A stretch of 64,000 nt of DNA from Candidatus Liptonbacteria bacterium (GTDB lineage: Bacteria > Patescibacteriota > Minisyncoccia > UBA6257 > 2-01-FULL-56-20), in contig JACQKU010000014.1 of assembly GCA_016204335.1 (NCBI GenBank), positions 4,988 to 68,987 of the forward strand, in the 5' to 3' direction. Positions 32,779-63,332 of this stretch are shown here, in pieces. How positions within the stretch are numbered: position 1 is the stretch's first letter; every line of letters begins with the position of its first letter. A model generated the notes under the pieces. That model was given only the letters and a program-made list of their open reading frames with translations. It ran no database searches and was not told where the DNA came from. Position numbers and translations under genes: made by a program.

Positions 32779-32863
32779 GCTACGAAATACGAAAAAGTAC
32801 GAATATACGAAATTGAAACAAACAAGATTTTCGTATATTCGTAAGAAATTCGTATTTCGTAGC
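32779..32863 (+). repeat. MITE-like hairpin family 2 (GCTACGAAATACGAA..TACGAATATACGAAA / TTTCGTATATTCGTA..TTCGTATTTCGTAGC)
   Basis: ~34-bp inverted arms; related copies at 37790-37852 and 63246-63332. Confidence 0.75.
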
Positions 32864-32877
32864 TGGGCGAAGCGACT

Positions 32878-33705
32878 ATGAAACTAATCTGCTTAAACAT
32901 CTGGGGCGGGAAATTGTTCGAGCCGTTGGTTGAATTCATCAAGCGTTCCGCGGAAACCGCCGATATTTTTTGTTTTCAGGAAGTGTTTCAAACCCCAGGC
33001 GAACCGCTTTATGGCGAGCTTGCCAGCCCTGAGTTTATCGAAGGGACCGAGCCCAAGCCGCTTCCGAGCGGGGGACATGCCGATATGTTCGCGGTGTTCG
33101 AGAAAATTCTCCCTGATTTTCGGGGGTACTTTGCAAAAAATGAGGAAGGATGGGATTTTCACCAGCCAGTTTCGTTTCCCATTGCGCTCGGCCAGGCATC
33201 GTTCGTCAGAAATGCGTTGACGGTTCGCGCGCACCGGCAAATTTCCGTCTATGAAACGGCAAGCGGAAAAGTCGAAGAAAAATGGGAACGGCCCCGTGGT
33301 ATGCAATACCTTGAAATTGACGACGGCAAAGATATGCCACTCCGCATTTTTAACTTGCACGGTCTTCTTGACTCCGGACACAAACGAGATACGGAGAAAC
33401 GGCTCGCTCATTTCGAGCTCGCGCGGAAATATGTGGACGAAGCCGTGAGCCGAACTATTTTGTGCGGCGACTTTAACGCGTACCCCGATACGCGGAGCGT
33501 TGGGATGTTTGAGGAGAAAATGCGGAATCTTTTAAAAGAATACGGAATGCCGCGGACGCGGAACAGCAACTATGCCGATATGGAAAAGTACTCTGATTAT
33601 TGGGGAGACCATATTTTCGCAACTCCCGATATAAAAGTGAATAACTTCGCGGTTCTTGAAGATATTGTTTCCGACCATATGGCGCTGATGGTTGAGTTTT
33701 CCTGA
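32878..33705 (+). CDS. endonuclease/exonuclease/phosphatase (EEP) family protein
   Basis: MKLICLNIWGG..IFCFQEV N-terminal EEP signature; C-terminal SDH. Confidence 0.65.
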   Translation: MKLICLNIWGGKLFEPLVEFIKRSAETADIFCFQEVFQTPGEPLYGELASPEFIEGTEPKPLPSGGHADMFAVFEKILPDFRGYFAKNEEGWDFHQPVSFPIALGQASFVRNALTVRAHRQISVYETASGKVEEKWERPRGMQYLEIDDGKDMPLRIFNLHGLLDSGHKRDTEKRLAHFELARKYVDEAVSRTILCGDFNAYPDTRSVGMFEEKMRNLLKEYGMPRTRNSNYADMEKYSDYWGDHIFATPDIKVNNFAVLEDIVSDHMALMVEFS

Positions 33706-33849
33706 GCAAAACTAAAATCTCCATAAAAATACTTCACCCTCGACACGATGTGCCGAGGGTTTGGGGCTTGCCCGGCTCCGATGGAGCAGGGCGGTTGGCG
33801 GTGGGCGAGGTTGCATAGGGTTTTCTCCTTTCTGTTGCGGTGGTTGGGT

Positions 33850-34143
33850 CTATCCTCCCAACCCCATCCGCATTTCGTGTAGGATTTGTCTGAGGGCTCG
33901 GAAGAATCCCGCAACCCTCTGGCAGATGTTATAGAAGTCCCATGGAATTCGCTCAGGCATCGGCTCGCGCCGTAGCCAGGCCAGCGTTGATTCCAGCTCG
34001 CCATTGGCGTTGACTCTGACAGGTTGCAAGCGCCCACACTCTGGGCACCCGATTTCCTTCCCCTCTCTCTTTTCCTCCCCCGAGAAATCATCCGCGAGGG
34101 AATTCGAGATGGGTTTATTGCACGTTTTGTTTTCGCAGTTCAC
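33850..34143 (-). CDS. small zinc-ribbon protein (paralog 1)
   Basis: CENKTC..CPECG; similar to the adjacent ORF. Confidence 0.4.
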   Translation of the reverse strand: MNCENKTCNKPISNSLADDFSGEEKREGKEIGCPECGRLQPVRVNANGELESTLAWLRREPMPERIPWDFYNICQRVAGFFRALRQILHEMRMGLGG

Positions 34144-34156
34144 ATTCCCTCCTTTA

Positions 34157-34384
34157 TCAAAGAAGTTCGAGAAGACTGTGAATGTTTTCCGGTGAAATCC
34201 GCGCTACTTCCACGGGGATGATATCCCCATTCGCGGTTGCCAACAGGAATGATCCACAGCGTTGGCATTGGAAGTACTTCTCTCCCGCTTGCTTCGCCAC
34301 AGGAAAAGACGCGGGGTCTATTTCCTGCAGGAATTGGGTTTCACAATCCGGGCACTCGAGCGGTTCCACGTCCTCGGATGTCAT
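34157..34384 (-). CDS. small zinc-ribbon protein (paralog 2), start at MTSEDV with GGAGGTG RBS
   Basis: CPDC..CQRCG; ORF-track N-terminal extension to 34519 looks non-coding. Confidence 0.4.
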   Translation of the reverse strand: MTSEDVEPLECPDCETQFLQEIDPASFPVAKQAGEKYFQCQRCGSFLLATANGDIIPVEVARISPENIHSLLELL

Positions 34385-34680
34385 CGGACACCTCCTTTTT
34401 TCAGCTTGGACCTTCTTATTCTCCTCCAGATTACCTTCTCTTCTTTTTCTTCTCTGTGCCTCAGTATCAAGCGCCGAACCCTTTGCGGAGGCATCCGGTA
34501 TCCTGCCATTTCGCTTCACCTCGCTTTCCGCTGTTATTTGATGTTATGTTGTACCACGAGCCATTCTATCTTTTGATACTTGTTAGCTCGGTCTGGGTTC
34601 TTAATAACAAAATTCATCGGCTTTGTCAAAAAAATAAAGGCGCTGTTCGATAACCCGGAAAAAGCGGAAGAATGAGTAAG

Positions 34681-34700
34681 CACTATGCCATGGCATAGTG
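34681..34700 (+). repeat. 20-bp perfect palindrome CACTATGCCATGGCATAGTG
   Basis: Member of the YTATGC..GCATAR palindrome family. Confidence 0.7.
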
Positions 34701-34796
34701 CCATGGCTTCCTTTAAAACAGTAGTTCCCGAACATCGGCAAAATAATAAGGGGTATTCTTTTAAAACAAAAAATCTATTAAAATGAAAGCAGAACG

Positions 34797-35438
34797 ATGA
34801 AGAAACTTTCTAAAAAAGAGTTTGAAAAACGAAGAAAAAAAGCGCTCGCTATAATCAAGGCGCTGAAAAAGCTTTTTCCGAATCCCAGAATCGCGCTGAA
34901 ATATCGGAATCCGTGGGAACTTTTTGTGTCCGTGGTGCTGTCGGCGCAGTGCACGGACAAGCAGGTGAACAAAGTCACCGCGCCGCTTTTCAGGAAGTAC
35001 AGAACATTGGGCGATTACGCGAAAGTCGGCGTCAAAGAGTTTCAAAAAGACATAAAGTCCACCGGGTTTTACCGCAACAAAGCGAAAAATATTCTGGCCG
35101 CGGCGAAAATGCTTAAACAAAAATTCCGCGGCAAAATCCCGCGCACTATGGAAGAGATGCTGACTTTGCCCGGCATCGGCAGAAAATCGGCGAACGTGAT
35201 TCTGGGCAATGTCTACGGCGTGGTTGAAGGAATTGCGGTTGACACCCATGTCCGCCGGCTTTCGAAAAAACTCGGGTTGACCGACCACGACGACCCGGCG
35301 AAAATCGAACGCGACCTTATGAAGCTGATTCCGCGGAAAGAATGGTTTCCAATTACGTATCGCCTTATCGATTACGGAAGAAAATATTGCGCGGCGCGAC
35401 CTCACGCTCATGAAAACTGCCCGTTATCGAGAATCTAA
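34797..35438 (+). CDS. nth: endonuclease III-like DNA glycosylase (HhH-GPD)
   Basis: LSAQCTDKQVN, HhH LPGIGRKSANVI, VDTHVRR; only two C-terminal Cys, so possibly no Fe-S cluster. Confidence 0.8.
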   Translation: MKKLSKKEFEKRRKKALAIIKALKKLFPNPRIALKYRNPWELFVSVVLSAQCTDKQVNKVTAPLFRKYRTLGDYAKVGVKEFQKDIKSTGFYRNKAKNILAAAKMLKQKFRGKIPRTMEEMLTLPGIGRKSANVILGNVYGVVEGIAVDTHVRRLSKKLGLTDHDDPAKIERDLMKLIPRKEWFPITYRLIDYGRKYCAARPHAHENCPLSRI

Positions 35439-36213: not shown

Positions 36214-36216
36214 TCA

Positions 36217-36807: not shown

Positions 36808-36861
36808 CGCGTGGTCAATTCAAGAAATTTGGTATACAATAGAAATTGACTTAACAAAAAA

Positions 36862-37137
36862 ATGCCCGAAGAAGACATCGGCAAAATCAAAAAAGAGGAA
36901 CCTCGGTTGCGACGCGAAGTAAAAGAACGGTCGCTTGTATATATTGTGGCGGCGTTCAGTTTGGTCGCGAGTTTGGCGTGGAACGAGGCGATAAAATCGC
37001 TCATAGATTATTTCTTTCCGCTTGGCGCGAATACGCTATTCGCCAAGTTTTTATACGCCGCAACGATTACTTTGTTCGTGGTTTCCATTACGATTTATCT
37101 TGAGCGGCTGTTGAGAAAAGAAACGGAAAAAGATTGA
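36862..37137 (+). CDS. hypothetical small membrane protein
   Basis: 91 aa, two TM helices. Confidence 0.35.
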   Translation: MPEEDIGKIKKEEPRLRREVKERSLVYIVAAFSLVASLAWNEAIKSLIDYFFPLGANTLFAKFLYAATITLFVVSITIYLERLLRKETEKD

Positions 37138-37772: not shown

Positions 37773-37858
37773 ATTGAGTAATCACTGATTATACAAATCC
37801 GCGCAAATATACGAAAATTTGTATATTACTTATTATTCGTATATTCGCGAATGCTCTT

Positions 37859-38983
37859 ATGAACGGCACTGACTTCAAATCAAAAAATCCCACGATACTC
37901 GTTATTTTCGGAGCCACGGGGGATTTGACGAGCCGGAAGCTCATGCCGGCGCTTTTTCATCTTTACCGGAAGAAACTTTTACCGCCGCTGTTTCAGGTTG
38001 TTGGGTTTTCGCGGCAGGATTTGTCCGACGCGGAGTTCCAATCGAGAGTGAAAAAAACGATTGGCCGAAGCAAAAAAAATGGCGCCACGGTGGAAGTCGT
38101 CGAATCGTTTTCCAAACTTTTCATATACTCGAAAGGATTTTTCGAAAAAAAGAAGGGATACAAAGATTTGGCTGAACTGCTCGGATACCGCGATAACGAA
38201 TGGAGGACTTGCGCGAACAAACTTTTTTATCTCGCGGTGCCGCCGCAATATTACAAGGGCATTCTGAAAAATCTGACTGCTTCCGGACTGACCGAACCGT
38301 GCAGTCCCGAAGAGGGATGGACGCGGGTAATTGTCGAAAAACCGTTCGGCAGAAATCTCAAAACCGCAGAAGAGCTCGACGCCCTTTTGGGCAAACTCTT
38401 TAAAGAAGAGCAGATTTACCGCATCGACCATTATCTCGGCAAGGAAACGGTTCAAAACATTCTCGCGTTCAGGTTTTCGAATTATTTTCTCGAGCCGGCG
38501 TGGGATAAACATTCTATCGAGGATATCAGAATTCGCCTGTGGGAAACCGGCGGCGTCGAGGGCCGCGGCGGTTTTTACGATACGGCAGGGGCGCTTCGCG
38601 ACGTGGGGCAGAATCATTTACTTCAGCTTTTGGCGCTTTTCACCATGGAAAATCCGGGCAAGTTTGACGCCGAGTCAATCCGCCGCAGGCGCGCCGAGAC
38701 GCTCAACTGTCTTAAGATTTTTACGAAAAAAGACGTGGAGCGTTTTGCGGTCCGGGCGCAATATGAAGGATACAGGAATGAGAAAGACGTAAAATCAGAT
38801 TCAAATACGGAAACATATTTCCGGATTACCGCTTTTTTGGACACGCCGCGTTTTGAAGGAGTACCGCTATATCTTGAAAGCGGGAAGATGATGCCTGAAT
38901 CGAAAGCCGAAGTTGTCGTCACGTTCAAGCATCCGTTGCCGTGTCTGTGTCCCGTCGAGGGACAAGGGACAAGGGACAAGTAA
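37859..38983 (+). pseudogene. zwf: glucose-6-phosphate dehydrogenase, N-terminal 374 aa, truncated by frameshift in a (GGGACAA)x3 tract
   Basis: ILVIFGATGDLTSRKLMPALFHLY NADP motif; reading frame ends inside the heptamer tract 38958-38980; C-terminal G6PD homology continues in another frame (38941 ORF). Confidence 0.75.
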
Positions 38984-40347
38984 AACATTACAAGAATATC
39001 CTCCGGTATCAGATTCAGCCGAGAGAACGCATTACCACGTCATTCTGGGTTAAGCGGCCGGGCGCGGAGATGATAATGGAGGAAAAAGATTTTTCGTTCG
39101 ATTACAAAGGCGCGTTTTCAAAAGAACTCTTCGTTGACGCATACGAGCGGCTCTTGCTTGATGCCATTTCAGGCAATCAAACGCTTTTTGTAAGCACCGA
39201 AGAAATCGCGGCAAGCTGGAAATTTATCGACCCGATTTCAAGAGCGTGGAAGAAAAATTCCGCATCACTTCTTTCGTACGCAAAAAAAACACTCCCCATT
39301 TCCGAAGAACTGGATGGTTCGGGCTTGTCCCGAAAAGAAATCGGTTTGATAGGTCTTGGAAAAATGGGGAAAAATATGGCGCTCCGGCTCTTGGAAAAAA
39401 GATGGAATGTGATTGCGTACGATGTAAGCCCGGAAGCACGCCAGGAAATTATCTTGAAAGGCGGGGTTGCCACAAATAGTATTCCTGAACTGGTTGGACA
39501 GTTGGAATTACCCCGAACAATTTGGTTAATGGTACCTGCGGGCAAAATTCTCGACGAAGTAATTTTCGGCACTTCGGCAAAGCTCAGTGCCGACCCTGAG
39601 CAGCGTCGAAGGGTCGGTTCGAACGGCCTCGCCGCGCTTCTTGCAAAAGGCGACATGATAATAGACGGCGGCAATTCGCTTTACGAGGATTCAATCAGGC
39701 GCGCGAAAAAGTTGAAAAAATTCGGCATCAGTTTTCTCGACGCCGGTGTCTCGGGAGGTCCCGGAGGGGCGAGGAACGGCGCGTGCCTGATGGTGGGCGG
39801 AGAGAAATCGGCGTACGACAAGCGCGAAGATTTATTCCGCGACCTCGCGGTTTCGGACGGATATGAGTATGTCGGAAAAGCGGGAGCCGGCCATTTCGTG
39901 AAAATGATTCATAACGGCATCGAGTACGGAATGATGCAGGCGATTGCGGAAGGCTTCGATGTGCTTCGCACCGCGGACTTACGCGGACTGAACCCTTCGA
40001 CACGGCTCAGGGCAAGCGCGGACAAACGCGGAAAATTGAAATATAAATTTAACCTCAAGAAAATAGCCGGCATTTATAATCGTGGGAGCGTGATTGAATC
40101 GCGGCTCGTCGGCTGGCTCAAGAACGCGTTTGAGGAATACGGCGAAAACCTCGAAAGAATTTCGGGCTCTGTCGGCCATACCGGAGAAGGGGAATGGACG
40201 GTCAAAACCGCGAAAAAACTCGGCGTGCCCGCCAAGGTAATCGAAGACGCGTTCAAATTCCGCGTGCAGTCCGCGAAAAAACCGAGTTATGTTGGAAAAA
40301 TTCTCTCGGCATTGCGAAATCAGTTCGGAGGACATAAGGCAAAGTAA
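38941..40347 (+). CDS. gnd: G6PD C-terminal segment fused in-frame to 6-phosphogluconate dehydrogenase (short Gnd type)
   Basis: ILRYQIQPRE..FVDAYERLLLDAISGNQTLFV (G6PD C-terminus) runs without a stop into IGLIGLGKMGKNMALRL Rossmann start of 6PGDH and GAGHFVKMIHNGIEYG. Confidence 0.75.
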   Translation: MSVSRRGTRDKGQVKHYKNILRYQIQPRERITTSFWVKRPGAEMIMEEKDFSFDYKGAFSKELFVDAYERLLLDAISGNQTLFVSTEEIAASWKFIDPISRAWKKNSASLLSYAKKTLPISEELDGSGLSRKEIGLIGLGKMGKNMALRLLEKRWNVIAYDVSPEARQEIILKGGVATNSIPELVGQLELPRTIWLMVPAGKILDEVIFGTSAKLSADPEQRRRVGSNGLAALLAKGDMIIDGGNSLYEDSIRRAKKLKKFGISFLDAGVSGGPGGARNGACLMVGGEKSAYDKREDLFRDLAVSDGYEYVGKAGAGHFVKMIHNGIEYGMMQAIAEGFDVLRTADLRGLNPSTRLRASADKRGKLKYKFNLKKIAGIYNRGSVIESRLVGWLKNAFEEYGENLERISGSVGHTGEGEWTVKTAKKLGVPAKVIEDAFKFRVQSAKKPSYVGKILSALRNQFGGHKAK

Positions 40348-40914: not shown

Positions 40915-40926
40915 TAATTAGAAGCC

Positions 40927-44280: not shown

Positions 44281-44329
44281 AATTAAGATGAAGATTCCTT
44301 CGTATAACCAATTACGGGGGTAGTAAACC

Positions 44330-45241
44330 ATGAATGAAATGAATAAAAATGGGTTTTTTCTTCGACTTCGAATCAAGTTACTGTTTGTTTGTTTCGCGGC
44401 AGGTATAGGATTTCTTCTGCCAATCGGAGCATCTGCCGCTCCGATTACCTACAATTCCGATTTTACCGTTTCGCTTACTTCGCCGGCGATTAACTTGACA
44501 ATAGCATCGGGTTCTCTCGCGGATTCTGTTACGGTCAATGCCGGAAGCGTTGAAGTAGCTCTCTCGCAGACCACCGGAGGAAATTTTACCGTCACATCGG
44601 CATCACGTGGTTTAACGGCTGGCACGACTGGTAGCGGAGTTGGCGGGACGGTCGCATTAACCTGCAGTTCTTCCCAAGTGCAGACTCTTGCTATAAATCA
44701 GTACGCGAGTTCTGAAACATATACCATTACCCCGACCGCGTCTCTCTGTACAGCTCCTGCGGTCGCAAGCACTAGCACTACATCTGGCGGCGGAAGCGGC
44801 GGTGGCGGTGGGGGTGGAGGTGGAGGTGGGGGTGGCTCTGGATTTTCGGCGCCGGTTTCAACTCCCACAGTTCCGACAGCTCCCGTAACCGTCGGTTCTT
44901 TGCAGGAACAGCTGAATGCTCTGCTTGTGAAGTTGTACGCCTTGCAGAAGCAGGCGAGAGAGCAAGGCGGCGCTTCGGTGGGCGCGAGTCCTTCTTCATT
45001 TGCGTTTACGCGAAATTTGCGCGCAGGTTCGCGCGGAGAGGATGTGCGCCAACTCCAGATTTTTTTGAATAATAACGGATTCCCCGTCGCGGCATCCGGT
45101 CCGGGGTCTGCTGGACAGGAGACCGCTTTCTTCGGGAATGCCACGCGCGCGGCGCTTGCCAGGTATCAGGCAAGCATTGGACTTCCTTCGACAGGTTTCT
45201 TCGGACCGCTCACGCGGGCGAAGATAGGCGGAAGTGAATAA
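44330..45241 (+). CDS. secreted protein with Gly-rich linker and C-terminal peptidoglycan-binding (PG_binding_1-like) domain
   Basis: GGGSGGGGGGGGGGGGG linker; RNLRAGSRGEDVRQLQIFLNNNGF..LARYQASIGLPSTGFFGPLT. Confidence 0.6.
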   Translation: MNEMNKNGFFLRLRIKLLFVCFAAGIGFLLPIGASAAPITYNSDFTVSLTSPAINLTIASGSLADSVTVNAGSVEVALSQTTGGNFTVTSASRGLTAGTTGSGVGGTVALTCSSSQVQTLAINQYASSETYTITPTASLCTAPAVASTSTTSGGGSGGGGGGGGGGGGGSGFSAPVSTPTVPTAPVTVGSLQEQLNALLVKLYALQKQAREQGGASVGASPSSFAFTRNLRAGSRGEDVRQLQIFLNNNGFPVAASGPGSAGQETAFFGNATRAALARYQASIGLPSTGFFGPLTRAKIGGSE

Positions 45242-47701: not shown

Positions 47702-48457
47702 ATGGCCCGTATGGATTCAGGTAGGGGGATAGTGTTGGTTGGCGTACTTAAAAGAAAACGCGACCTCACGATTCTCCTGCGTGAGCGCTGGTATCGTATT
47801 CCTCGCGCATGGTTTCCGAAAAGGAAATTTCAATATCTCGCGTTTTATCAACCTGCTTTGTTCGGCCGGCAAGGGAAGCGGATTCAGTATTATGCGCGCG
47901 TGATGCGTTGCGAGACACATAAGCGGCGCGGATTGTTGCCGCGCGAATCCGTGCATCCGAACGCCGACGCGGAGTATGCGCAGATCCATGTCGCCGATAT
48001 CAAAAAACTGCCAAAAGCGATTATAAATCGTCGGCCGGGACAGCCACGACGCGTGTCTTTCGGCTTCACCACGTTCACGTGTTTGAAAACGGCGAGAAAT
48101 ATTTTGGAATTATACCGCGTCGCGCCGACCGAGGAGATGATGGGAAAGGCGCTTGTGGAATCCGGCATTCGGGCGATTCCGCAGCACTATGTTTCGAGCG
48201 GCTTGAAGCGAAGGAAAAAACTATATTGTCTTGATTTTGCGATATTGTGCAAATGGGGCGCGATCGCGATCGAGTGCGACAATCGAAAAGCTCATGTCGG
48301 GGCGCGACAGCGCGCAAAGGACGGGACGAAAGACGCTTTTTTGCGCCGGCGCGGCTGGACCGTGGTCCGGCTTAAGGAAGAAGAAATCGTGCTTCGCCTC
48401 GAGGATTGCATTACTCACATACGTAAAACAATCCAAGCCCTCGGCGGCCAATCCTAA
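47702..48457 (+). CDS. DUF559 (Vsr-like PD-(D/E)xK) domain protein with unknown N-terminal domain
   Basis: C-terminal LDFAILCKWGAIAIECDNRKAH..RRRGWTVVRL. Confidence 0.5.
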   Translation: MARMDSGRGIVLVGVLKRKRDLTILLRERWYRIPRAWFPKRKFQYLAFYQPALFGRQGKRIQYYARVMRCETHKRRGLLPRESVHPNADAEYAQIHVADIKKLPKAIINRRPGQPRRVSFGFTTFTCLKTARNILELYRVAPTEEMMGKALVESGIRAIPQHYVSSGLKRRKKLYCLDFAILCKWGAIAIECDNRKAHVGARQRAKDGTKDAFLRRRGWTVVRLKEEEIVLRLEDCITHIRKTIQALGGQS

Positions 48458-48499
48458 TTACAACATTCTGATATTCTGCAGAATATTAGAATGTTGTAA
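48456..48499 (+). promoter_or_regulatory. palindromic operator-like site TTACAACATTCTGATATTCTGCAGAATATTAGAATGTTGTAA upstream of arsR
   Basis: Near-perfect 36-44-bp palindrome; second copy at 48789-48824 overlapping the arsR stop. Confidence 0.5.
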
Positions 48500-48532
48500 T
48501 GTGATATACTTACTTACGATACAATCGATACA

Positions 48533-48799
48533 ATGAAAACCTCAAAGCAACTTGAACGGTATTTTAAGGGTGCGGCCAATCATTGGCGTATTTCCGTTTT
48601 GTTTCTTATTGAGAAAAACGAAGGAATTACTGTTCAGGGAATTACTTCAGCACTCGGCGGAAATTTCAAAACTATCTCCCAACATACGCGAGCATTGGTG
48701 CAGGCTGGCCTTTTGAATAAAAAGTATCGCGGCCAGGAAGTTATGCATTCGCTCTCTCCTTATGGAAAATCATTCGTCCGTTTCATGAAAACATTCTAA
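48533..48799 (+). CDS. ArsR/SmtB family winged-helix transcriptional regulator
   Basis: ISVLFLIEKNEGITVQGITSALGGNFKTISQHTRALVQAGLL. Confidence 0.6.
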   Translation: MKTSKQLERYFKGAANHWRISVLFLIEKNEGITVQGITSALGGNFKTISQHTRALVQAGLLNKKYRGQEVMHSLSPYGKSFVRFMKTF

Positions 48800-48824
48800 T
48801 ATTCTGCAGAATATCAGAATGTTT
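48789..48824 (+). promoter_or_regulatory. second copy of palindrome AAACATTCTAATATTCTGCAGAATATCAGAATGTTT
   Basis: See 48456-48499. Confidence 0.5.
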
Positions 48825-48856
48825 TATGTAAAGTGGCTTTTAGTTTAAGGATTTTT

Positions 48857-52919: not shown

Positions 52920-52949
52920 CCGGCCGCTATGCTATAGCATAGCGGCCGG
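52920..52949 (+). repeat. 30-bp perfect palindrome CCGGCCGCTATGCTATAGCATAGCGGCCGG
   Basis: Core GCTATGCTATAGCATAGC shared with 53044-53079 and 57643-57666. Confidence 0.8.
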
Positions 52950-53043
52950 AAATGTCGGAGCGAGAGGCAGGTTTCATAGATTTTTTCAGCAACGGAAACC
53001 GGTGTCTTTTTTGGAGAAGCTTTCGCAAGTCCAACCGGCTTGG

Positions 53044-53079
53044 CCTTCTGCCGCTATGCTATAGCATAGCGGCAGAAGG
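53044..53079 (+). repeat. 36-bp perfect palindrome CCTTCTGCCGCTATGCTATAGCATAGCGGCAGAAGG
   Basis: Same core, 125 bp from the previous copy. Confidence 0.8.
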
Positions 53080-53127
53080 CATTTTACTGCCAGTAATACT
53101 TATACAAACGGGGACCTCACGCGAAGT

Positions 53128-55308: not shown

Positions 55309-55328
55309 GCCGGACTAGCTCATTGGTA
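55309..55328 (+). repeat. 20-nt duplicate of the tRNA-Phe 5' end (GCCGGACTAGCTCATTGGTA)
   Basis: Identical to 55626-55645. Confidence 0.75.
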
Positions 55329-55389
55329 CCTGCCTGCCGGCAGGCAGGGAGCGCAATCCTGGAATAGAAAATGGGTTCCTATCTTGTGC

Positions 55390-55635
55390 ATGGAATATTT
55401 TGTTTATATAATTCGAAGCGGTAAGGATAACAGTAATTACACTGGTTTGACTGCGAATTTAGAACGAAGAGTTGCTGAACATAACAAAAGTGATACGAAA
55501 ACCACTCGTTCTAAAAAGCCATGGAGGTTAATATACTTTGAAAAGTACTCATCACGGATTGAAGCAAGAAAACGAGAAAAATATTTAAAAAGCGGCACTG
55601 GACGTGAACTAAGGAAACAACTACTGCCGGACTAG
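55390..55635 (+). CDS. GIY-YIG nuclease family protein (homing-endonuclease-like), AT-rich
   Basis: YFVYIIRSGKDNSNYTGLTANLERRVAEHN GIY-YIG motif; stop TAG lies inside the tRNA-Phe 5' end. Confidence 0.65.
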   Translation: MEYFVYIIRSGKDNSNYTGLTANLERRVAEHNKSDTKTTRSKKPWRLIYFEKYSSRIEARKREKYLKSGTGRELRKQLLPD

Positions 55636-55697
55636 CTCATTGGTAGAGCGCTACCCTGAAGAGGTAGGCGTACCCAGTTCGATTCTGGGGTCCGGCA
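55626..55697 (+). tRNA. tRNA-Phe (anticodon GAA)
   Basis: GCCGGAC-TA-GCTC-ATTGGTA-GAGC-G-CTACC-CTGAAGA-GGTAG-GCGT-ACCCAG-TTCGATT-CTGGG-GTCCGGC-A. Confidence 0.8.
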
Positions 55698-55975
55698 CAT
55701 ATTAGATTTTGTTCGCGCAATGCGCGCTACAAAATCTTCCCTGCCTGCCGGTAGGCGGGTATCCCGCCGCCGGCGGGACTGGGAAAATTTTTTCTGCTCA
55801 CTGGTGGAGCGAAAAGAATTTTCCTGCTTCCGAAACTGTGCAAAACTTATTTTGCTTTTTAGCGAAATAAATTTATTATTCGTATAATACTTCAGTATTG
55901 ATTTTTTTAGGCGATTCAGAATTGATTGTCCCTTTGGGGGAATAAAAGTTTCTCCGAGTTTCTCCAAACCGGGCA

Positions 55976-58298: not shown

Positions 58299-58448
58299 AT
58301 GGGAGGCGTACCAGTAAAACATCATAGCAAGGGAAAAGTCGGCAGGCGGAGGTCGCATATGGCTTTGAAAAAAGAGCGGGTTTTTGTTTGCAAGAACTGC
58401 GGCGGGCCGAAACTGCCGCACCGGATTTGCGGGCAGTGCAGGAAGTAA
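58299..58448 (+). CDS. rpmF: 50S ribosomal protein L32
   Basis: GGVPVKHHSKGKVGRRRSH..CKNCGGPKLPHRICGQC; ORF-track start 58263 uses a non-ATG start; coordinates may be off by 1. Confidence 0.7.
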   Translation: MGGVPVKHHSKGKVGRRRSHMALKKERVFVCKNCGGPKLPHRICGQCRK

Positions 58449-58598
58449 ATTCAAAAATCAAATATCAAAGTGCAAAATGAAAGCGTAAAATGAAAAAAGA
58501 ATTCAAGCACATTCTTTTTTCCGCCCGAGGCGGATCCGCCTTCGGCGGAGAATTTTGATTCGTCATTTTGATTTTTGACTTTTGCATTTTGTATTTTA
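58447..58598 (+). repeat. MITE family 1 degenerate copy with double CCGCC/GGCGG hairpin loop
   Basis: AAATTCAAAAATCAAATATCAAAGTGCAAAATGAAAGCG.. / ..TTTTGATTTTTGACTTTTGCATTTTGTATTTT; loop TCCGCCCGAGGCGGATCCGCCTTCGGCGGAG resembles 10362-10395. Confidence 0.6.
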
Positions 58599-58601
58599 TA
58601 T

Positions 58602-59030: not shown

Positions 59031-59036
59031 TTAATT

Positions 59037-59735
59037 ATGAATAACGAAGCAGGCAATCTTGAAAATCTCGAAACCGTCATCGGCTTCAATTTCAAAAATA
59101 AAGATTTTCTCAAAGAGGCGCTGACGCACCGGTCGTATTTGAACGAAAATCCCGGCTGGCCGTTTTCCCACAACGAGCGTCTGGAATATCTCGGCGACGC
59201 GGTGCTTGAGCTTGTGGTGAGCGAAGCGCTTTTCAAAAAATTTCCCAAAGCGCCCGAGGGGCAGATGACAGTGCTTCGCGCCGCGCTCGTGAATTACCAA
59301 ATGCTCGGCAGCGTTGCCGCGGCTCTCCGCCTTGACGATTTTATTTTTATGTCGCGGGGGGAGCGCGCTGACACCTCAAAAGCGCGGGAAGTGATTCTCG
59401 CGAACGCCATTGAGTCGCTCATCGGCGCGATTTATCTTGATGCCGGACTTGAAGCCGTAGAGGGGTTTGTCGAACGATTTATTTTCACGCGTCTTCCGGA
59501 AATCCTCGAAACCAAAAGCTATAAGGACTCCAAAAGCGAACTTCAGGAAATAATCCAGGAAAAACTGAAAATAACGCCGACCTACGGAGTTCTTGGAGAA
59601 AGCGGGCCGGCGCACCAGCGGACATTCCGCATAGGGGTTTATTTCGGGAATGAATTGATTGCCGAAGGCGCGGGCGCTTCTAAGCAGGAAGCCGAAGTCG
59701 AAGCGGCGAAAAAAGCGCTGGAGAAGCGTAAATAA
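59037..59735 (+). CDS. rnc: ribonuclease III
   Basis: HRSYLNENPGWPFSHNERLEYLGDAVLELVVSEALF signature and C-terminal dsRBD. Confidence 0.9.
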   Translation: MNNEAGNLENLETVIGFNFKNKDFLKEALTHRSYLNENPGWPFSHNERLEYLGDAVLELVVSEALFKKFPKAPEGQMTVLRAALVNYQMLGSVAAALRLDDFIFMSRGERADTSKAREVILANAIESLIGAIYLDAGLEAVEGFVERFIFTRLPEILETKSYKDSKSELQEIIQEKLKITPTYGVLGESGPAHQRTFRIGVYFGNELIAEGAGASKQEAEVEAAKKALEKRK

Positions 59736-59857
59736 AATCAAAATTCAAACTGCAAACATCAAAATGAAAATGTAAAATGCAAAAAACCCTTAAAAATTCT
59801 TTTTTAATTTTTTCTTTTTCATTTTGCATTTTGAGATTTGATTTTTGAATTTTCCAT
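59735..59857 (+). repeat. MITE family 1 copy 4 (near-identical to 15881-16001)
   Basis: AAAATCAAAATTCAAACTGCAAACATCAAAATGAAAATGTAAAATGCAAAAAA .. TTTTTCATTTTGCATTTTGAGATTTGATTTTTGAATTTT, ending 2 nt before the smc ATG. Confidence 0.8.
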
Positions 59858-59858
59858 C

Positions 59859-62048
59859 ATGCCCAATCTTCTTAAACGCCTCGAACTAAACGGGTTCAAA
59901 TCGTTCGCGCAAAAGACAGTTCTCGAATTTCCGACCGGCATCACGGCGATTGTCGGTCCCAACGGTTCGGGAAAATCTAACGTCATAGACGCGATTCGCT
60001 GGCTGTTGGGCGAGCGCGAAGCGAAAAATTTGCGCGGCGCAAAAGCGGAGGACCTGATTTTCGCGGGCACTCCGAAAAAGGCGCGGCTTGGCCAGGCGCA
60101 CGCATCGCTTCATTTCGAAAACGAGAAGAATTTTTTTCCGCTTGAGTTCGCCGAAATTTCCGTTTCCCGGCAGGTTGACCGCGACGGCTCGAATAAGTTT
60201 TTTTTGAATAAGGCGGAAATCCGGCTCAAGGACCTGATAGATTTTTTCGCGAAAGTCAGGCTGGGAACAAAGGGTTTGGTGGTTATAACGCAGGGCAACA
60301 GCGACATTTTTGTCCAGGCCTCTCCAGCCGGAAGGCGCGAAATGCTCGAGGAAATGCTCGGCTTACGCGAATATCAGCTGAAAAAAAATTCATCCGAACG
60401 CCGCCTGAAAAACACGGAAATCAATCTTGAGAAAGTTGACGCCTTGATAAAGGAAATTCTGCCGCATCTTCGTTCGCTCAAACGGCAGACGGGCCGGTGG
60501 GAAAAACGGGAGGCGCTTGCGGACGAACTTCATAATCTTGAAAATCAATTTTTCGGGCATCAATGGCGGGAGCTTGGAGATAAGATTTCCGGAATTGAAA
60601 AAGAGATTGGCGTCCATCGGGAAGAGTTGAAAATTTTTGAAAAAGAAAAAGACGCCGCGGATGAATATCTCAAAAAAGTCGAGGCGAGCAGGCCGGCGGA
60701 ACGCGAGGAAATGGCGGGCATCAAGAAAGAACTGAACGAGGTTCTTGAAAAAAGAAGCCAATTTCAGAAAGAACTCGGCCGTTTGGAAGCCCGGCTCGAA
60801 ATATACCAGAAAAAGCCGGGCGATGTTTCGGTTCCGGCGACGAAACTCGTCGAATTTATAGAAAAGGCGAGAACGAGACTCGAAAAAACCCTTGACGCGG
60901 AAATCGAATCACTGCGCGATGTTATACGCGAACTTATGCGTGAAATCGACGTTCTTTTTTCCGCCGGAGAAAAAGAGGATATGGCACTGCCGCAGGACCT
61001 TAAATCGGGCCTCGCGGAACTCGAGAAAAATTTGGCGGGTTTGGACGGGGAAATTTCGGCGCTCCGGCTGAAAGAGGAAACGCTCGGAAAAAACCAGGAG
61101 GACTTTTATCGCTTGTTCAAAAAAGCCGCGGCTGGAATCGAGGCGGCGAAAGACAAAATCGAGAAATGGGAAAATAAGAATCAGGAGCGGCTTTTTGAAA
61201 AGGAACGTCTGGAACTCCGTTTATCGGAGTTGAAGCGCCAGATAGAACAAGCGGGCCGGAAGCCGGAAGAGTTTAATAAGGTTATGCATTCGGAGATTCC
61301 GCAATCGGAATCGTTTTCCTCGTTTGAGAAACGGATTTTTAAGTTGCGCGGCGACTTGGCGGGCATCGGCGAAGTTGACGAAGCGCTTCTTAAAGAAGCG
61401 AGGGAAACCGAAGAACGGCACAATTTTCTCGAACGGCAGTTCGAGGATTTGGGAAAAGCAAAAAACGACCTTAGGCAGTTGATAGAAGAATTAAGCGATA
61501 AAATAAGGAACGAGTTTATGGAAGCTCTAGGAAAAATTAACGAAGAGTTCGACACGTTTTTTCGGCTGATGTTCGACGGAGGCCGCGCGAAACTCAAGAT
61601 AGTGGGTCAAGGGTCAAGTATCAAGGGTCAAGTAAAGGCGAAAGGCGCCGAAGAAAATAAAGAGTCGAATGTTGCGGCGGAAGAAGAGGCGGAGAAAGAA
61701 GAAAAAGAAGTAGAGGAGGGAATAGAAATAAGCGTGAATTTGCCGCGAAAAAAAATACATTCTCTGGAAACGCTTTCCGGCGGCGAGAGGAGTTTGGTCG
61801 GCATCGCGGCATTGTTCGCCCTGATTTCGGTCAGCCCGCCGCCGTTTCTGGTTCTTGACGAAGTGGACGCCGCGCTCGATTCCCGAAATTCCCGGCGGTT
61901 CGGCGAGATGCTCAAAGAATTTTCGAAAAAAACCCAGTTTATCGTCGTCACGCACAACCGCGCCGTAATGGAAACGGCAAACGTGTTATACGGAGTGACG
62001 CTCAACGAAGACGGCACTTCAAAAATTTTGTCGTTGAAATTGGAATAA
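59859..62048 (+). CDS. smc: chromosome segregation SMC-like ATPase (short, ~729 aa)
   Basis: Walker A GPNGSGKSN, long coiled coil, signature LSGGERSL, Walker B FLVLDEVDAALD; rnc-smc synteny; (GGGTCAA)-type heptamer tract at 61605-61633. Confidence 0.75.
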   Translation: MPNLLKRLELNGFKSFAQKTVLEFPTGITAIVGPNGSGKSNVIDAIRWLLGEREAKNLRGAKAEDLIFAGTPKKARLGQAHASLHFENEKNFFPLEFAEISVSRQVDRDGSNKFFLNKAEIRLKDLIDFFAKVRLGTKGLVVITQGNSDIFVQASPAGRREMLEEMLGLREYQLKKNSSERRLKNTEINLEKVDALIKEILPHLRSLKRQTGRWEKREALADELHNLENQFFGHQWRELGDKISGIEKEIGVHREELKIFEKEKDAADEYLKKVEASRPAEREEMAGIKKELNEVLEKRSQFQKELGRLEARLEIYQKKPGDVSVPATKLVEFIEKARTRLEKTLDAEIESLRDVIRELMREIDVLFSAGEKEDMALPQDLKSGLAELEKNLAGLDGEISALRLKEETLGKNQEDFYRLFKKAAAGIEAAKDKIEKWENKNQERLFEKERLELRLSELKRQIEQAGRKPEEFNKVMHSEIPQSESFSSFEKRIFKLRGDLAGIGEVDEALLKEARETEERHNFLERQFEDLGKAKNDLRQLIEELSDKIRNEFMEALGKINEEFDTFFRLMFDGGRAKLKIVGQGSSIKGQVKAKGAEENKESNVAAEEEAEKEEKEVEEGIEISVNLPRKKIHSLETLSGGERSLVGIAALFALISVSPPPFLVLDEVDAALDSRNSRRFGEMLKEFSKKTQFIVVTHNRAVMETANVLYGVTLNEDGTSKILSLKLE

Positions 62049-62060
62049 TCTTTAAAAACG

Positions 62061-62104
62061 AAAAAACGCCGGACATCACTTGTTGACGAAGGCGTTTCTT
62101 TGTT
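62061..62104. terminator. bidirectional terminator-like hairpin AACGCC..GGCGTT flanked by A-run and T-run
   Basis: AAAAAACGCC-20 nt-GGCGTTTCTTTGTT; on the minus strand it is followed by TTTTTTCGTTTTT. Confidence 0.4.
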
Positions 62105-62714
62105 ACTCGTTAAGTTGTCAAAGAGCGAAACCGATGGGCGGGCGGAGAGTCAGCAGGACTCCCCGCCCGGAATCCTTTCGTTTCCCTTTGTAAGGGATAC
62201 GCTAGGTTTCTGCATTCGCCAGGGAGTTCGTCCACTGCCGATTGCGCCCACCATTGCAAATTCAGGCGGGCAAGAAAAGAGGGTTTTTCTTTTCTTACCC
62301 GGACGGCCTATGCGCCCGATGCGCAAGGTCCTCTGCGACCTCCGGAGGCTGGAGGCGCACCCAAAGTTTTCTGAATAAAGGATAGTACGACTCCGGCCAT
62401 TTGACAAGTTTTGAATGTCTGCTACACTTTAGAAGATTCCAAAGACCATAGGTGCCAAAGGGATAAACTTGCCCGCCGTAGTCCGCCATAGGTGGACGAA
62501 GGATGGGTCCTATGCAGGAGATTTCATTCGGATGGGCGCTTTCGTGATGCGCTATTCGGGCGAAACGCCTGCTTTGGAGAGCGGGTTTTTTATTTATAAG
62601 TATCAGCATAAATCCGCAAAAATCAGCATGAATCAGCGTGGAAAGCGCGCAACGATTTCTAGGTTTGGACCGCTGATAGATGCCGATTTCAGCTGATTAA
62701 TACCGATAAACTTC

Positions 62715-63245
62715 ATGAAAACCAAAGCGCAAAAAGAAAAAGAACTCGAAAAAGGCAGAGAGCTTTTGGCTCAAAGCGCCATCTTGATTTTCACGAATTT
62801 TTCGAATGTCGCTTCGGCGAACATCAATAAACTGCGCCAGCAGCTCAAAAGTTCGGATTCGCGCTATTTAGTGATTAAAAAGCGGCTTCTCAATATTCTT
62901 TTCAAAGAGAGGGGGATTGAGTTTGACGCGAGAAAATTGGATTCGCAGATAGGCACGATTTTTTCAAAGCAGAATCTTGAACAAGTAAGCGGGCCGGTGT
63001 TCAGTTTTTTTAACGGCATCGGCGGAGACACGAAAGCCGGCCGCGATGAAAGCGTAAAGAAAATCCTCGGCGCCTACGACTTGAAAGCAAAAACGGCAAT
63101 CGAAGCGAAACAGGTGCTCTTTATCGGACAACTGCCGCCGAGAGAAGTTCTTCTGGCGCAGCTGCTCGGAATGATTTCTGCTCCGATACGTTCGTTTCTT
63201 TATGTTTTAAGCGAGAAGTCAAAACAAATGGTCGAAACCAAGTAG
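62715..63245 (+). CDS. rplJ: 50S ribosomal protein L10
   Basis: MKTKAQKEKELEKGRELL.. L10 family; followed by rplL. Confidence 0.85.
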   Translation: MKTKAQKEKELEKGRELLAQSAILIFTNFSNVASANINKLRQQLKSSDSRYLVIKKRLLNILFKERGIEFDARKLDSQIGTIFSKQNLEQVSGPVFSFFNGIGGDTKAGRDESVKKILGAYDLKAKTAIEAKQVLFIGQLPPREVLLAQLLGMISAPIRSFLYVLSEKSKQMVETK

Positions 63246-63332
63246 CGCTACGAAATACGAATTTATTGCGAATATACGAAACACGAATGGGAAGTAAAAT
63301 TCGTATATTCGCACAGTTTCGTAATTCGCAGA
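63246..63332 (+). repeat. MITE family 2 copy (GCTACGAAATACGAATTTATTGCGAATATACGAAA .. AATTCGTATATTCGCACAGTTTCGTAATTCGCAG)
   Basis: Between rplJ and rplL. Confidence 0.6.

Follow-up and report, generated by a model that had tools for sequence, protein, structure and literature searches.

Five hairpins in DNA of a Candidatus Liptonbacteria MAG (CPR/Patescibacteria) raise the question of whether they are mobile elements and, if so, of what kind. The whole stretch of 64,000 nucleotides that was analysed is referred to here as the window. An initial annotation had reported the five as a single MITE-like finding, comprising a family of TACGAA repeats (family 2) and a family with shared asymmetric termini (family 3). 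All five hairpins are present where they had been placed and fold far better than shuffled sequences (z-scores of -3 to -13). The single finding joins two unrelated repeat families, which should have been treated separately. The repeats of both are small DNA palindromes that typify CPR (Patescibacteria) genomes. With a probability of roughly 0.7, family 3 consists of MITEs of a ~313-bp element that encodes a GIY-YIG nuclease, and family 2 is a selfish palindrome of REPIN or RPE type.

Both hairpin families recur beyond the window

The window holds 96 inverted-repeat pairs and many unrelated AT-rich hairpins, and TACGAA hexamers are not enriched in it overall (44 versus 37 expected), the signal being their clustering in hairpins; on these grounds, the similarities might be chance inverted repeats within AT-rich spacers. 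Against this stand the fold z-scores and the recurrence of the search patterns, which specified 23 to 26 nt and for which, as estimated from collection size, ~0.5 chance matches or fewer are expected. The family 2 core pattern was found in 81 DNA stretches of species-representative genomes, mostly CPR and several per genome, and the family 3 pattern, in a metagenome scan, at more than 120 loci at the least, among the matches listed. The likeness of termini and arms thus extends past the loci of the window, and chance is refuted by the folds together with recurrence at 81 and >120 independent loci, which leaves it a vanishingly small likelihood. At the gathering threshold, an Rfam scan matched only four tRNAs and neither hairpin family, and Rfam E-value scans gave nothing beyond generic miRNA-hairpin noise. 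Intrinsic terminators were rejected for either family, as no T-run follows the hairpins and the sole terminator called lies upstream of family 3 copy B.

Family 3 copies are flanked by target-site duplications

Family 3 is represented in the window by two copies, termed A and B, and by one empty target site.

18327-18330, + strand: left target-site duplication TATG of copy A; the ATG within it is the original start codon
18331-18478, + strand: family 3 MITE copy A, long (148-bp) subfamily, termini CCAGGTAGTGAAAATGCGAT ... ATCGCATTTCTACTACCTGG
18479-18482, + strand: right target-site duplication TATG of copy A, giving the ATG (18480) of ORF 18480-18761
26107-26110, + strand: left target-site duplication TTTG of copy B, where the T-tract of an intrinsic terminator ends
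26111-26181, + strand: family 3 MITE copy B, short (71-bp) form, termini CCAGGCAGTGAAAGTTCGGC ... GCCGAACTTCTACTGCCTGG
26182-26185, + strand: right target-site duplication TTTG of copy B, overlapping a weak -35-like TTGAAT (26183-26188)
44329-44332, + strand: CATG at which gene 44330-45241 starts, an empty target site that is filled in a related contig (L142)

Copy A (hairpin z of about -5.5) has no ORF in any frame and is 80% identical over its full length to an independent 144-bp copy at metagenome locus L167. It is preceded by a promoter-like TTGAGA-17-TATAGT at 18293-18321 (10/12 matches, TG upstream), the ATG of the left TATG lies 6 nt past the -10-like box, and copy A appears to be lodged between a leaderless-type promoter with its ATG and the ORF at 18480. 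Copy B, the architecture of which has many near-identical counterparts in metagenomes, appears to separate an intrinsic terminator (stem 26079-26099, CCGCCCGCAAGGGTTGGGCGG then TTTTGTTTTT) from the next promoter region, in which the TTGAAT is followed after 17 nt by TAATAT (8/12 matches, below the promoter-scan threshold). Other family 3 copies carry TTGA or CTTG duplications in front of TTGACA-N17-TAnnnT.

Both copies end in 20-bp terminal inverted repeats, of which the outer 13 nt are common to the two and the inner 7 nt differ with complementarity kept; the asymmetric termini (GTGAAA / TTCTAC) are as originally described. At up to two mismatches, CCAGGYAGTGAAA has seven matches in the window versus 1.8 expected, the four real ends included. 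Across the family, the termini consist of CCAGGYAGTGAAA followed by seven variable, complementary bases, and a 2-nt mismatch is constant at positions 10-11; the invariance of positions 1-13, mismatch included, is partly by design because the search pattern fixed the outer 13 nt. Terminus variants CCGGG and CCAGGA also exist. Among 128 distinct copies, positions 14-20 are 95-98% Watson-Crick paired, against 32-80% after shuffling, with two to four pair types at each position; there are few G-T pairs, and pairing ends at position 20. What is conserved at these positions is complementarity, not sequence.

The target-site duplications for which a search had been proposed flank both window copies and, as exact 4-bp repeats, 88 of the 129 listed copies, versus 0-2 matches among the 129 at shifted-offset controls; beyond these, 15 copies have a 3-bp repeat and 19 match at 3/4 positions, counts that may overlap. 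TATG is the commonest duplication (23/88), and 27 different tetranucleotide targets occur among the listed copies. Start codons are the site of 33 of 128 listed MITEs and -35-like sites that of about 15, target and orientation being specific to the subfamily. The MITEs measure 60-148 bp, are multi-copy and have no ORF, and their copies show no regular stop/frame pattern that would account for continued translation of the host gene. A filled site was also found opposite an empty one: L142, which is syntenic with the window at about 80% nucleotide identity, carries a MITE flanked by CATG where the orthologous window site at 44329 is empty. Finally, samples differ at one locus in whether they contain a 38-bp mini-element, and its variant termini match those of its full-length GIY-YIG neighbour. 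The MITE-like character of family 3 was supported on every test that the initial annotation had put forward.

Strong covariation in the stem and the proximity of family 3 to start codons, promoters and terminators would also suit structured RNAs or regulatory stem-loops (a riboregulator, a terminator or an attC-like site) rather than transposable DNA. Such a reading is contradicted by the duplication and polymorphism data, that is by 4-bp direct repeats of variable sequence, by filled and empty sites, and by tandem insertions that have the duplication in common. The elements moreover occur in both orientations relative to genes, compensation is Watson-Crick only with G-U nearly absent, Rfam gives no match and no T-tract follows the stem. 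We consider a structured RNA highly improbable.

The full-length element encodes a GIY-YIG nuclease

The initial annotation had proposed a search for a full-length element with the same termini and a transposase. An element with these termini was found (~313 bp), but a single gene takes up its whole interior, and it encodes an ~88-aa GIY-YIG nuclease (UPF0213/SLX1-like) and not a classical transposase. The parent ORF matches Pfam PF01541 at E 7.5e-17, with the catalytic domain alone spanning the 88-aa protein, and the catalytic residues Y, Y-G, R, H and E are invariant. The nearest solved relatives are UPF0213 proteins (1zg2, E 4e-4; 1ywl, E 2e-3), then SLX1 (E about 0.1). Neither DNA binding nor strand transfer is an obvious function of this 88-aa domain.

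The nuclease ORF of full-length copies opens at the duplicated host ATG, crosses the left terminus in frame (MPGSENSIAI-MFYYVY...) and stops precisely 20 nt short of the second ATG, at which the host gene continues. This arrangement is seen at six different host genes, always with (T/A)ATG duplications and the 20-nt gap from stop to host ATG. Homologues of the nuclease number 734 at E <= 1e-10. Among 39 fetched homologues with a called ORF reaching upstream of the MFYYVY start, the added peptide is the translation of ATG plus left terminus in 34, of which 32 start with MPGSEN (or a one-/two-residue variant) and two have the peptide after a short leader; the lengths of the N-terminal extensions differ by whole codons. 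The short copies of family 3 are non-autonomous deletion derivatives (MITEs) of the ~313-bp element. Two window genes bear on which enzyme moves them.

24928-25977, + strand: rve/IS481-like transposase ORF adjoining copy B, with inverted repeats ACATATGAGACTTTTCG at 24896-24912 and 25938-25954
55390-55635, + strand: GIY-YIG nuclease gene, about 40% identical to the family 3 nuclease, a distant homologue

The GIY-YIG gene at 55390-55635 is without family 3 termini, and the window is therefore without an autonomous family 3 element. The rve/IS481-like transposase was rejected as the family 3 parent, as its own inverted repeats are unrelated. Movement of the MITEs in trans by a conventional transposase, be it this neighbour or an IS1380-type enzyme, with the GIY-YIG protein as a passenger, is a separate matter. 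Copy B lies about 130 bp downstream of the rve ORF, classical MITEs rely on DDE enzymes, and the GIY-YIG protein is a catalytic domain alone; IS1380-type elements, as known from ISfinder, have ends in CC and duplications of 4-5 bp. However, no conventional transposase is bounded by family 3 termini at the six full-length or 120 MITE loci listed, and the rve element has terminal repeats of its own. The nuclease ORF, in turn, keeps the reading frame of the terminus in dozens of variants, which differ by indels of whole codons, and the mini-element bears the exact variant termini of its GIY-YIG neighbour. A conventional transposase is in our view quite unlikely, though one encoded elsewhere in these genomes could act in trans. 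The GIY-YIG nuclease, which is outside the known transposase types, is the putative mobilising enzyme of family 3.

Insertion of family 3 leaves a 4-bp duplication, for which (T)ATG at start codons is the most frequent target and TTGA or CTTG at -35 boxes are further ones. In the mechanism that we propose, the element would borrow the host promoter and start codon for its own expression, and the host ORF after it would be translated by re-initiation or independent initiation. The nuclease may act on a hairpin or cruciform made by the element ends. SLX1 cuts branched and cruciform DNA, and cutting of this type would suit family 3 because the element ends need only be complementary. The flanking tetranucleotide could alternatively be a microhomology or recombination core rather than a staggered-cut duplication; we know of no GIY-YIG enzyme that produces 4-bp duplications.

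Family 2 is a dispersed palindrome at gene junctions

Family 2 is a ~85-nt palindrome of two stems with four TACGAA hexamers per arm. Its members in the window, none of them assigned to a strand, are as follows.

32779-32863: family 2 palindrome, full copy, at the junction of 2-hydroxyacid dehydrogenase and EEP phosphatase genes
37800-37849: degenerate family 2-like hairpin, inner stem only, CGCGCAAATATACGAAAA ... TATTCGTATATTCGCG, at a cyclase / G6PD junction
63246-63332: family 2 palindrome, full copy, between rplJ and rplL

A profile of 116 related-element arms detected four arms in the window (E 2.7e-11 to 4e-8), and these make up the two full copies. The copy at 32779-32863 (-41.7 kcal/mol, z = -10.7; arm E-values 2.7e-11 and 1.1e-08) has an outer stem CTACGAAATACGAA / TTCGTATTTCGTAG, an inner stem TACGAATATACGAAA / TTTCGTATATTCGTA, an internal loop of 5-6 nt and an apical loop of 16 nt; it begins 3 nt past the upstream stop and ends 15 nt before the ATG at 32878. 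The copy at 63246-63332 (-29.4 kcal/mol on the + and -34.6 on the - strand; z = -4.7 and -6.9) is identical in three independent Logan assemblies, and its gene-proximal arm, the 'B' variant TTCGTAATTCGCAGAG, ends 8 nt before the rplL ATG. Of the three TACGAA repeats initially reported, these two stand as full members and the third, at 37790-37852, is a weak relative with a weaker fold (-16.4 kcal/mol, z = -3.2), to be read as degenerate or related because the profile matched it via the inner stem only (E 0.078). Its hairpin lies within a ~80-nt segment that is missing from the orthologous stop-start junction of L142 (TAAATCACATG there). All three window copies lie between co-directional genes, so that the description of family 2 as always intergenic holds in the window, but elsewhere a copy lies within mnmA, in frame and stop-free in two genomes.

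The arms are nearly invariant across many CPR lineages, whereas loops and flanking genes diverge; this phylogenetic breadth is less certain in that some MAG labels ('Saccharibacteria' third-party assemblies) may be imprecise. Orthologous copies are identical at 60/60 arm positions with flanks about 71% identical, and within one genome loops are common to copies in both orientations (loop-sharing subfamilies). Stop|start junctions hold 27 of 60 copies, which lie 0-9 nt past the stop and 5-9 nt ahead of the start, and the genes downstream are housekeeping genes, often operon-internal. The label MITE-like fits family 2 poorly. Target duplications of 3-5 bp, sought at all offsets 0-9, match in no more than 5 of 62 copies. 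Across 640 kb of loci, no ORF lies within a long pair of arms, the translated arms gave no match in a peptide search, and neither a mobilising gene nor a clean filled/empty pair for a canonical copy was found. Family 2 is a true dispersed hairpin family and not a classical MITE. It would be a selfish palindrome that a conserved putative trans-acting factor keeps uniform, tolerated, as we propose, because the compact hairpin leaves tightly packed gene junctions undisturbed.

Family 2 might instead be a cis-acting element of the host, an intercistronic or 5'-proximal hairpin read by a conserved CPR factor. It could then free the downstream start codon, as a 'punctuation' or processing site of RNase III-like type, or serve as an mRNA stabiliser or as a DNA operator of a global regulator that controls housekeeping genes. 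The 100% identity of the arms at an orthologous site with far more divergent flanking genes, the end of the element 5-9 nt from the start codon in most cases, and the preference of the 'B' arm variant with AGAAAWTC-ATG for facing the gene all point this way. So do the genes downstream (rplL, rpmA, rplO, rplX, rpmC, rpsQ, rpsK and rpsF, and also rpoC, tsf, atpE/F and recA), the copies before each of consecutive genes (L079, L065) and the leaderless appearance of many genes here, without Shine-Dalgarno sequences. A host function would account for the extreme conservation, the orthologous retention and the fixed spacing at least as well as selfish spread does. On the other hand, mismatches in the gene-oriented stem are 7 G-U versus 9 A-C, which argues that there is no selection for sense-RNA pairing; sigma-70-like hexamers at a workable distance and a T-tract are lacking, and the apical loop, at 10 to 35 nt, is too variable in length for a linear dimeric operator. 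One copy is translated within mnmA, shared-loop copies occur in both orientations per genome as duplication and spread would give, and short stop-start spacers alone force tolerated insertions close to both codons. We judge a host element to be somewhat unlikely, and retain the selfish palindrome as the preferred reading of family 2. A combined reading, in which family 3 represents an unrecognised class of prokaryotic DNA transposon and, separately, the TACGAA palindrome is the site of a CPR-wide operon-punctuating factor, falls a little short of an even chance. Such a transposon class could be a parasite of start codons and leaderless promoters with abundant MITEs throughout CPR.

Implications

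CPR bacteria account for much of bacterial diversity, their genomes are tiny and supposedly poor in mobile elements, and known DNA transposons employ DDE, HUH, serine or tyrosine recombinases, or Cas1. If our reading of family 3 is true, a GIY-YIG transposon barely longer than its gene would constitute a new enzyme class of DNA transposition, the parent would be about the smallest autonomous element known, and its compact structure-guided module for DNA cutting and insertion would be worth testing. As family 3 tends to insert exactly at start codons, the present annotation is wrong for many gene starts, N-terminal extensions and 'hypothetical' 98-aa ORFs of CPR; the family also bears on CPR translation initiation (leaderless or non-Shine-Dalgarno). 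The TACGAA palindrome, although non-coding, is better conserved than neighbouring proteins across many candidate phyla, and would be a selfish element of remarkable success or else a way into a clade-wide part of the gene-expression machinery.

Comparison with known systems

REP/REPIN sequences resemble family 2 in being intergenic palindromic doublets in several to many copies, without target duplication and with long vertical persistence, and the outer-end CTAC...GTAG of family 2 recalls the GTAG tetranucleotide of REPs. In family 2, however, GTAG/CTAC occurs at the outer ends of the whole palindrome only, and no RAYT gene (IS200-like Y1) was seen among the proteins adjoining the elements. 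REP sequences vary by species, whereas family 2 arms are nearly identical across many candidate phyla. The family 2 arm was rejected as a REP unit, as the arms are direct TACGAA x4 arrays and not hairpins. Rickettsia palindromic elements (RPE), reportedly described by Ogata and colleagues in 2000, share with family 2 a ~100-nt palindrome, clade-wide conservation at orthologous sites, the lack of a known mobilising enzyme and in-frame residence in protein genes (here mnmA). They differ in sequence and host group, and family 2 has one in-frame case among 60 copies, most lying at stop-start junctions.

With respect to family 3, UPF0213 (YhbQ/YazA-type) and SLX1 are the closest solved sequences, to which the CPR protein is likened by sequence; these are cellular genes and, to our knowledge, have no inverted repeats at their borders. 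Free-standing GIY-YIG homing endonuclease genes (phage T4 seg genes, I-TevI family) have the same conserved catalytic residues and likewise form a selfish gene between or before host genes. Homing enzymes carry a DNA-binding domain and recognise long specific sites; their spread relies on break repair and involves neither terminal repeats nor target duplications. In contrast, the family 3 protein is a bare catalytic domain, its targets have no more than about 4 nt in common, and the element is marked by defined ends, by duplications and by derivatives that lack the ORF; the homing endonuclease identity was rejected for the parent on the domain content, the 27 tetranucleotide targets and the terminal repeats with duplications. 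Correia elements of Neisseria belong to the bacterial MITEs that stem from insertion sequences.

Some non-intron insertions in the rRNA genes of CPR bacteria contain GIY-YIG ORFs, and such insertions have been remarked not to look like homing (PMC11270868). Our literature search found no description of a miniature transposon with a GIY-YIG-only parent that targets the start codons of host genes. MITEs that bacterial insertion sequences have given rise to, such as MITEAba12 of Acinetobacter (PMC6382973), are like family 3 in being <150 bp, non-coding and present in many copies, with terminal repeats and a duplication of fixed length, in inserting near promoters or gene starts, and in having an autonomous relative with the same ends. 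Family 3 differs from them in that its parent is ~313 bp with a GIY-YIG nuclease instead of a DDE transposase, in that the inner 7 bp of its termini vary freely if complementary, and in that the full-length element reads its gene from the duplicated start codon of the host.

Hairpins of the window

The initial annotation had listed five hairpins as MITE-like families 2 and 3, and all five are present where it placed them, surrounded by ordinary genes and folding as single strands far better than dinucleotide shuffles. By exact protein matches, the window belongs to an 87-kb contig of a Candidatus Liptonbacteria MAG (Parcubacteria group, CPR).

Hairpins of families 2 and 3 (window coordinates; z against dinucleotide shuffles)
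18331-18478, family 3 copy A, z -5.5
26111-26181, family 3 copy B with flank, z -6.6
32779-32863, family 2 hairpin, -41.7 kcal/mol, z -10.7
37790-37852, weak family 2 relative, -16.4 kcal/mol, z -3.2
63246-63332, family 2 hairpin, -29.4 / -34.6 kcal/mol, z -4.7 / -6.9

Rfam scans at the gathering threshold and by E-value returned no family for either the family 2 or the family 3 element. The window holds numerous other AT-rich intergenic hairpins (5011-5117, 5545-5637, 6594-6674, 8683-8785, 15875-16005, 48457-48500, 48788-48825, 58447-58596, 59734-59853 and 62610-62714), the arms of which are short tandem motifs (CAAAAT, TAAGTAAT, ATGGAAA, AGCTAAT and others). A start codon lies within a few nucleotides of the end of nearly all of them, and in some the CAT...ATG of divergent or adjacent genes falls inside the palindrome; they are probably the 'family 1' of the initial annotation and its relatives. 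A perfect 24-bp palindrome, GCCGCTATGCTATAGCATAGCGGC, occurs in two copies 103 nt apart (52923-52946 and 53043-53080) within a 358-nt spacer, the second being lengthened to a 38-bp palindrome.

Family 3 is a mobile element

Family 3 is indeed mobile, and for it the MITE reading was right. Metagenome contigs were scanned with the pattern CCAGGYAGTGAAA-N20-50-TTCTACTRCCTGG, which fixes the outer 13 nt of the termini, and gave at least 120 loci. Among the matches listed, an exact 4-bp direct repeat flanks 88 of 129 unique copies (0-2 at shifted offsets); a 3-bp repeat (n=15) or a match at three of four positions (n=19) flanks others, two counts that may overlap. The flanking tetranucleotides are of 27 kinds, namely TATG (23), its reverse complement CATA (9), CTTG (7), TTGA (7) and 23 more, and because their sequence varies they must be duplications of the target site, outside the element itself. 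Such duplications also flank the window copies, as TATG at 18327-30 and 18479-82 for copy A and as TTTG at 26107-10 and 26182-85 for copy B. An alternative to a staggered cut is that the 4-bp repeat stems from microhomology or a recombination core. Metagenome contig L142, which is syntenic with window 36.8-44.6 kb at ~80% identity, carries a family 3 copy between CATG repeats at the start codon of the gene orthologous to 44330, and the corresponding window site is empty.

Across 128 distinct copies the two ends are complementary over 20 positions, with an abrupt stop to the pairing at position 20. Watson-Crick pairs make up 95-98% at positions 14-20 (shuffled, 32-80%), each of which shows two to four pair types, G-T pairs are nearly absent from the terminal stems, and compensated variants (CCAGGA...TCCTGG, CCGGG...CCCGG) occur even within the outer 13 nt of full-length copies. 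About a quarter of the family 3 MITEs lie at start codons (26 forward, 7 reverse) and ~15 at -35-like TTGA or CTTG sites, the inner-stem subfamily going with orientation and target. Viral contigs held no copy of family 3 or family 2.

Tandem insertions at one tetranucleotide are common, in the order MITE, full-length element and host gene with TATG between each (comparison loci L116 8487-8880, L215 2307-2370, L088 and L160), and the duplicated target appears to stay a preferred target. Several targets read TATG/CC, like the left junction of the element itself.

The full-length parent encodes a GIY-YIG nuclease

The initial annotation proposed a search for a full-length element with the family 3 termini and a transposase; a full-length element was found, but its gene is of the GIY-YIG type. 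At L116, the 313-bp element has the family 3 termini and a TATG duplication, and its interior is one 88-codon ORF with a GIY-YIG nuclease domain (PF01541, E 7.5e-17). This nuclease has 734 homologues at E <= 1e-10, with Nealsonbacteria, Portnoybacteria and 'Patescibacteria' as named sources, and its invariant catalytic residues are Tyr, Tyr-Gly, Arg, His and Glu. The nearest solved structures are UPF0213 proteins, followed by the structure-specific endonuclease SLX1.

We fetched 39 homologues in which the called ORF reaches upstream of the MFYYVY start, and 34 of them contain MPGSEN or a variant with one or two residues changed, at the N-terminus in 32 and after a short leader in two. This peptide is the translation of ATG plus CCAGGTAGTGAAAA, the family 3 left terminus. 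The N-terminal extensions vary by whole codons (9, 10 or 11 residues); other homologues read the left terminus in another frame, and one ORF passes through the right terminus. Full-length loci (L116 and the DNA of five fetched homologues) adjoin six host genes: iscU, a 649-aa ORF, ribosomal protein L25, a Wzy_C/TPR protein, a sigma-70 factor and an HTH_3 protein. All six copies have these termini in common and lie between duplicated TATG or AATG, and in every one the host ATG follows the nuclease stop codon by exactly 20 nt. At the L25 locus, an extra 38-bp element is present in some samples and missing from others; it consists of only the two termini of the adjoining full-length copy, CCGGG variant included, with its own TATG, and thus directly shows both the formation of a deletion derivative and a recent insertion.

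Among the fetched loci, long-spaced family 3 end pairs enclosed no transposase, only the 313-bp GIY-YIG element, and two kb-scale end pairs are without matching duplications. The GIY-YIG gene in the window (55390-55635) shares only ~40% identity with the family 3 nuclease and has no family 3 termini, so both window copies are orphans. The rve/IS481-like transposase adjoining copy B was rejected as the parent, as it has different inverted repeats of its own:

IS481-like (rve, HTH_32) insertion sequence, within 24684-25977, 17-bp inverted repeats 24896-24912 and 25938-25954

Its right inverted repeat is overrun by the transposase ORF, and a lone left-end motif, TGAGACTTTTCGAA, lies at 24684-24697 within a higher-G+C stretch (24400-25500).

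Proposed mechanism and gene starts

Insertion at (T)ATG would duplicate the start codon, leaving the host promoter and start context with the upstream copy; copy A is preceded by a promoter-like TTGAGA-17-TATAGT that ends 6 nt before the ATG. The upstream ATG would now open the nuclease ORF, running through the left terminus, and the downstream ATG would restart the host ORF 20 nt past the nuclease stop. No regular pattern of upstream-ORF stop or frame was seen in the MITEs ((length+4) mod 3 is evenly spread), so that the second ATG must often serve as an independent start for host translation. As the inner terminus needs complementarity only and relatives of the nuclease cut branched DNA, we propose that the nuclease recognises the element ends in hairpin or cruciform form.

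At many window genes a -10-like TAnAAT-type box, often with TG upstream, lies 6-7 nt before the ATG with no Shine-Dalgarno sequence, and these genes therefore look leaderless (e.g. 12038(-), 46491, 47702, 48533 and 56348); AGGAGG is present at few (e.g. 52458(-)). To judge by these start regions, the pattern suggests that leaderless transcripts are widespread in the source Liptonbacteria genome.

Family 2 is a conserved palindrome

The repeats of family 2 are genuine, but the MITE reading is too simple for them. A search of species-representative genomes with the core pattern GAATATACGAAA-N5-35-TTCGTATATTC gave 81 DNA stretches, mostly from CPR bacteria (Jorgensen-, Nealson-, Staskawicz-, Portnoy-, Falkow- and Moranbacteria, also Saccharibacteria-labelled MAGs, some of these labels perhaps being imprecise), with several copies per genome and variants in some Bacteroidota MAGs. 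The consensus is GCTACGAAATACGAA-N5-6-TACGAATATACGAAA-loop-TTTCGTATATTCGTA-N5-6-TTCGTA(T/A)TTCGTAG, and no target duplications surround it at any offset. Within a genome, copies in either orientation have loops in common, and these loops differ between lineages; in orthologous copies upstream of a response-regulator gene, the arms are identical at 60/60 positions, the loops unrelated and the flanks ~71% identical. Our reading of family 2 is a palindrome of the REPIN or RPE kind that a putative conserved factor keeps uniform.

A serious though less probable rival is that the palindrome has a genuine role in the host, for instance in RNA processing or as an operator. The element fills the stop/start junction in 27 of 60 copies (stop 0-9 nt before, start mostly 5-9 nt after), divergent genes flank four, and the downstream genes are housekeeping, often within ribosomal-protein, ATP-synthase or rpoBC operons. 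Stem mismatches in the orientation of the downstream gene (G-U 7 vs A-C 9) give no pointer to selection on an RNA helix. A copy lies in frame and stop-free within mnmA in two genomes, and a peptide search for translated arms gave no candidates. Family 2 was rejected as a sigma-70 promoter (only 2-3/6 hexamer matches at ATG distances), as a loop-spanning promoter (loop length too variable) and as a terminator (no T-tract).

Two of the window's family 2 hairpins are full copies, and the third is a weak relative with the inner stem alone; the segment in which this relative lies is absent from L142, where the orthologous junction is 5 nt long. The adjacent G6PD gene (37859-40347) is apparently interrupted: ORF 37859-38983 covers only 168/296 positions of the G6PD C-terminal domain and overlaps ORF 38941-40347, and the L142 alignment is continuous up to 39398, within this region. 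A frameshift or an assembly error could explain the interruption, or the gene may be a pseudogene; an exact look-up of the G6PD ORF gave no record, probably through a wrong start or frameshift.

Pseudomonas-type matches to the core belong to a different 32-nt palindrome, GAATATACGAAACRTATAYGMTTCGTATATTC, which precedes, by ~10 nt, a small gene whose product begins MGLVKI(S/E) in Pseudomonas, Stenotrophomonas, Sphingomonas and other Proteobacteria (L004, L009, L030, L042, L050, L059, L068-L070 and L077). This palindrome resembles an operator and, despite a common 11-mer, probably has no relation to CPR family 2.

Other GIY-YIG insertions and palindromes

No GIY-YIG gene was found between TACGAA arms; different repeats flank other GIY-YIG genes. 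The window's tRNA-Phe is split by a 316-bp insertion holding the GIY-YIG gene (window 55310-55700), and its first 20 nt (GCCGGACTAGCTCATTGGTA) are duplicated at 55310-55329 and 55626-55645, the upstream copy being directly followed by the perfect palindrome CCTGCCTGCCGGCAGGCAGG. The arrangement suggests a further kind of mobile GIY-YIG insertion, by which the tRNA target is restored. Palindromes of a third family, CCTGCC..GGCAGG, occur at 55330-55349, ~55735-55755 and ~27480-27530 and in other CPR genomes (L081 3615-3634, L020, L074, L076); in L081 one such palindrome interrupts a family 2 element in its left inner arm (TACG-CCTGCCTGCCGGCAGGCAGG-AATATACG). Other small CPR GIY-YIG genes lie between different inverted repeats (GTCATTCTGAGCGTAGCGAAGAATC... 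/ ...CATTGCGAGGGCGAAGCCCGAAGCAATC) at L027 5650-6120 (-) and L066 7600-8000 (-). GAGCGAAG-type sequences occur in window spacers 17783-17853 and 31145-31313, and immediately beyond family 2 'B' ends, the gene-proximal arm variant, in L012, L033, L060 and L083. Several GIY-YIG/terminus families may exist.

Comparison with known systems

In literature searches with poor coverage of subscription journals, there was no earlier description of the TACGAA motif or CPR palindromes, nor of GIY-YIG genes with inverted repeats, duplications or MITEs. GIY-YIG ORFs have been noted in non-intron insertions of CPR rRNA genes, where they 'seem outside the context of homing' (PMC11270868). The features of the window are new members of small-repeat classes, and the parent of family 3 is, so far as these searches go, a minimal transposon of an undescribed kind.
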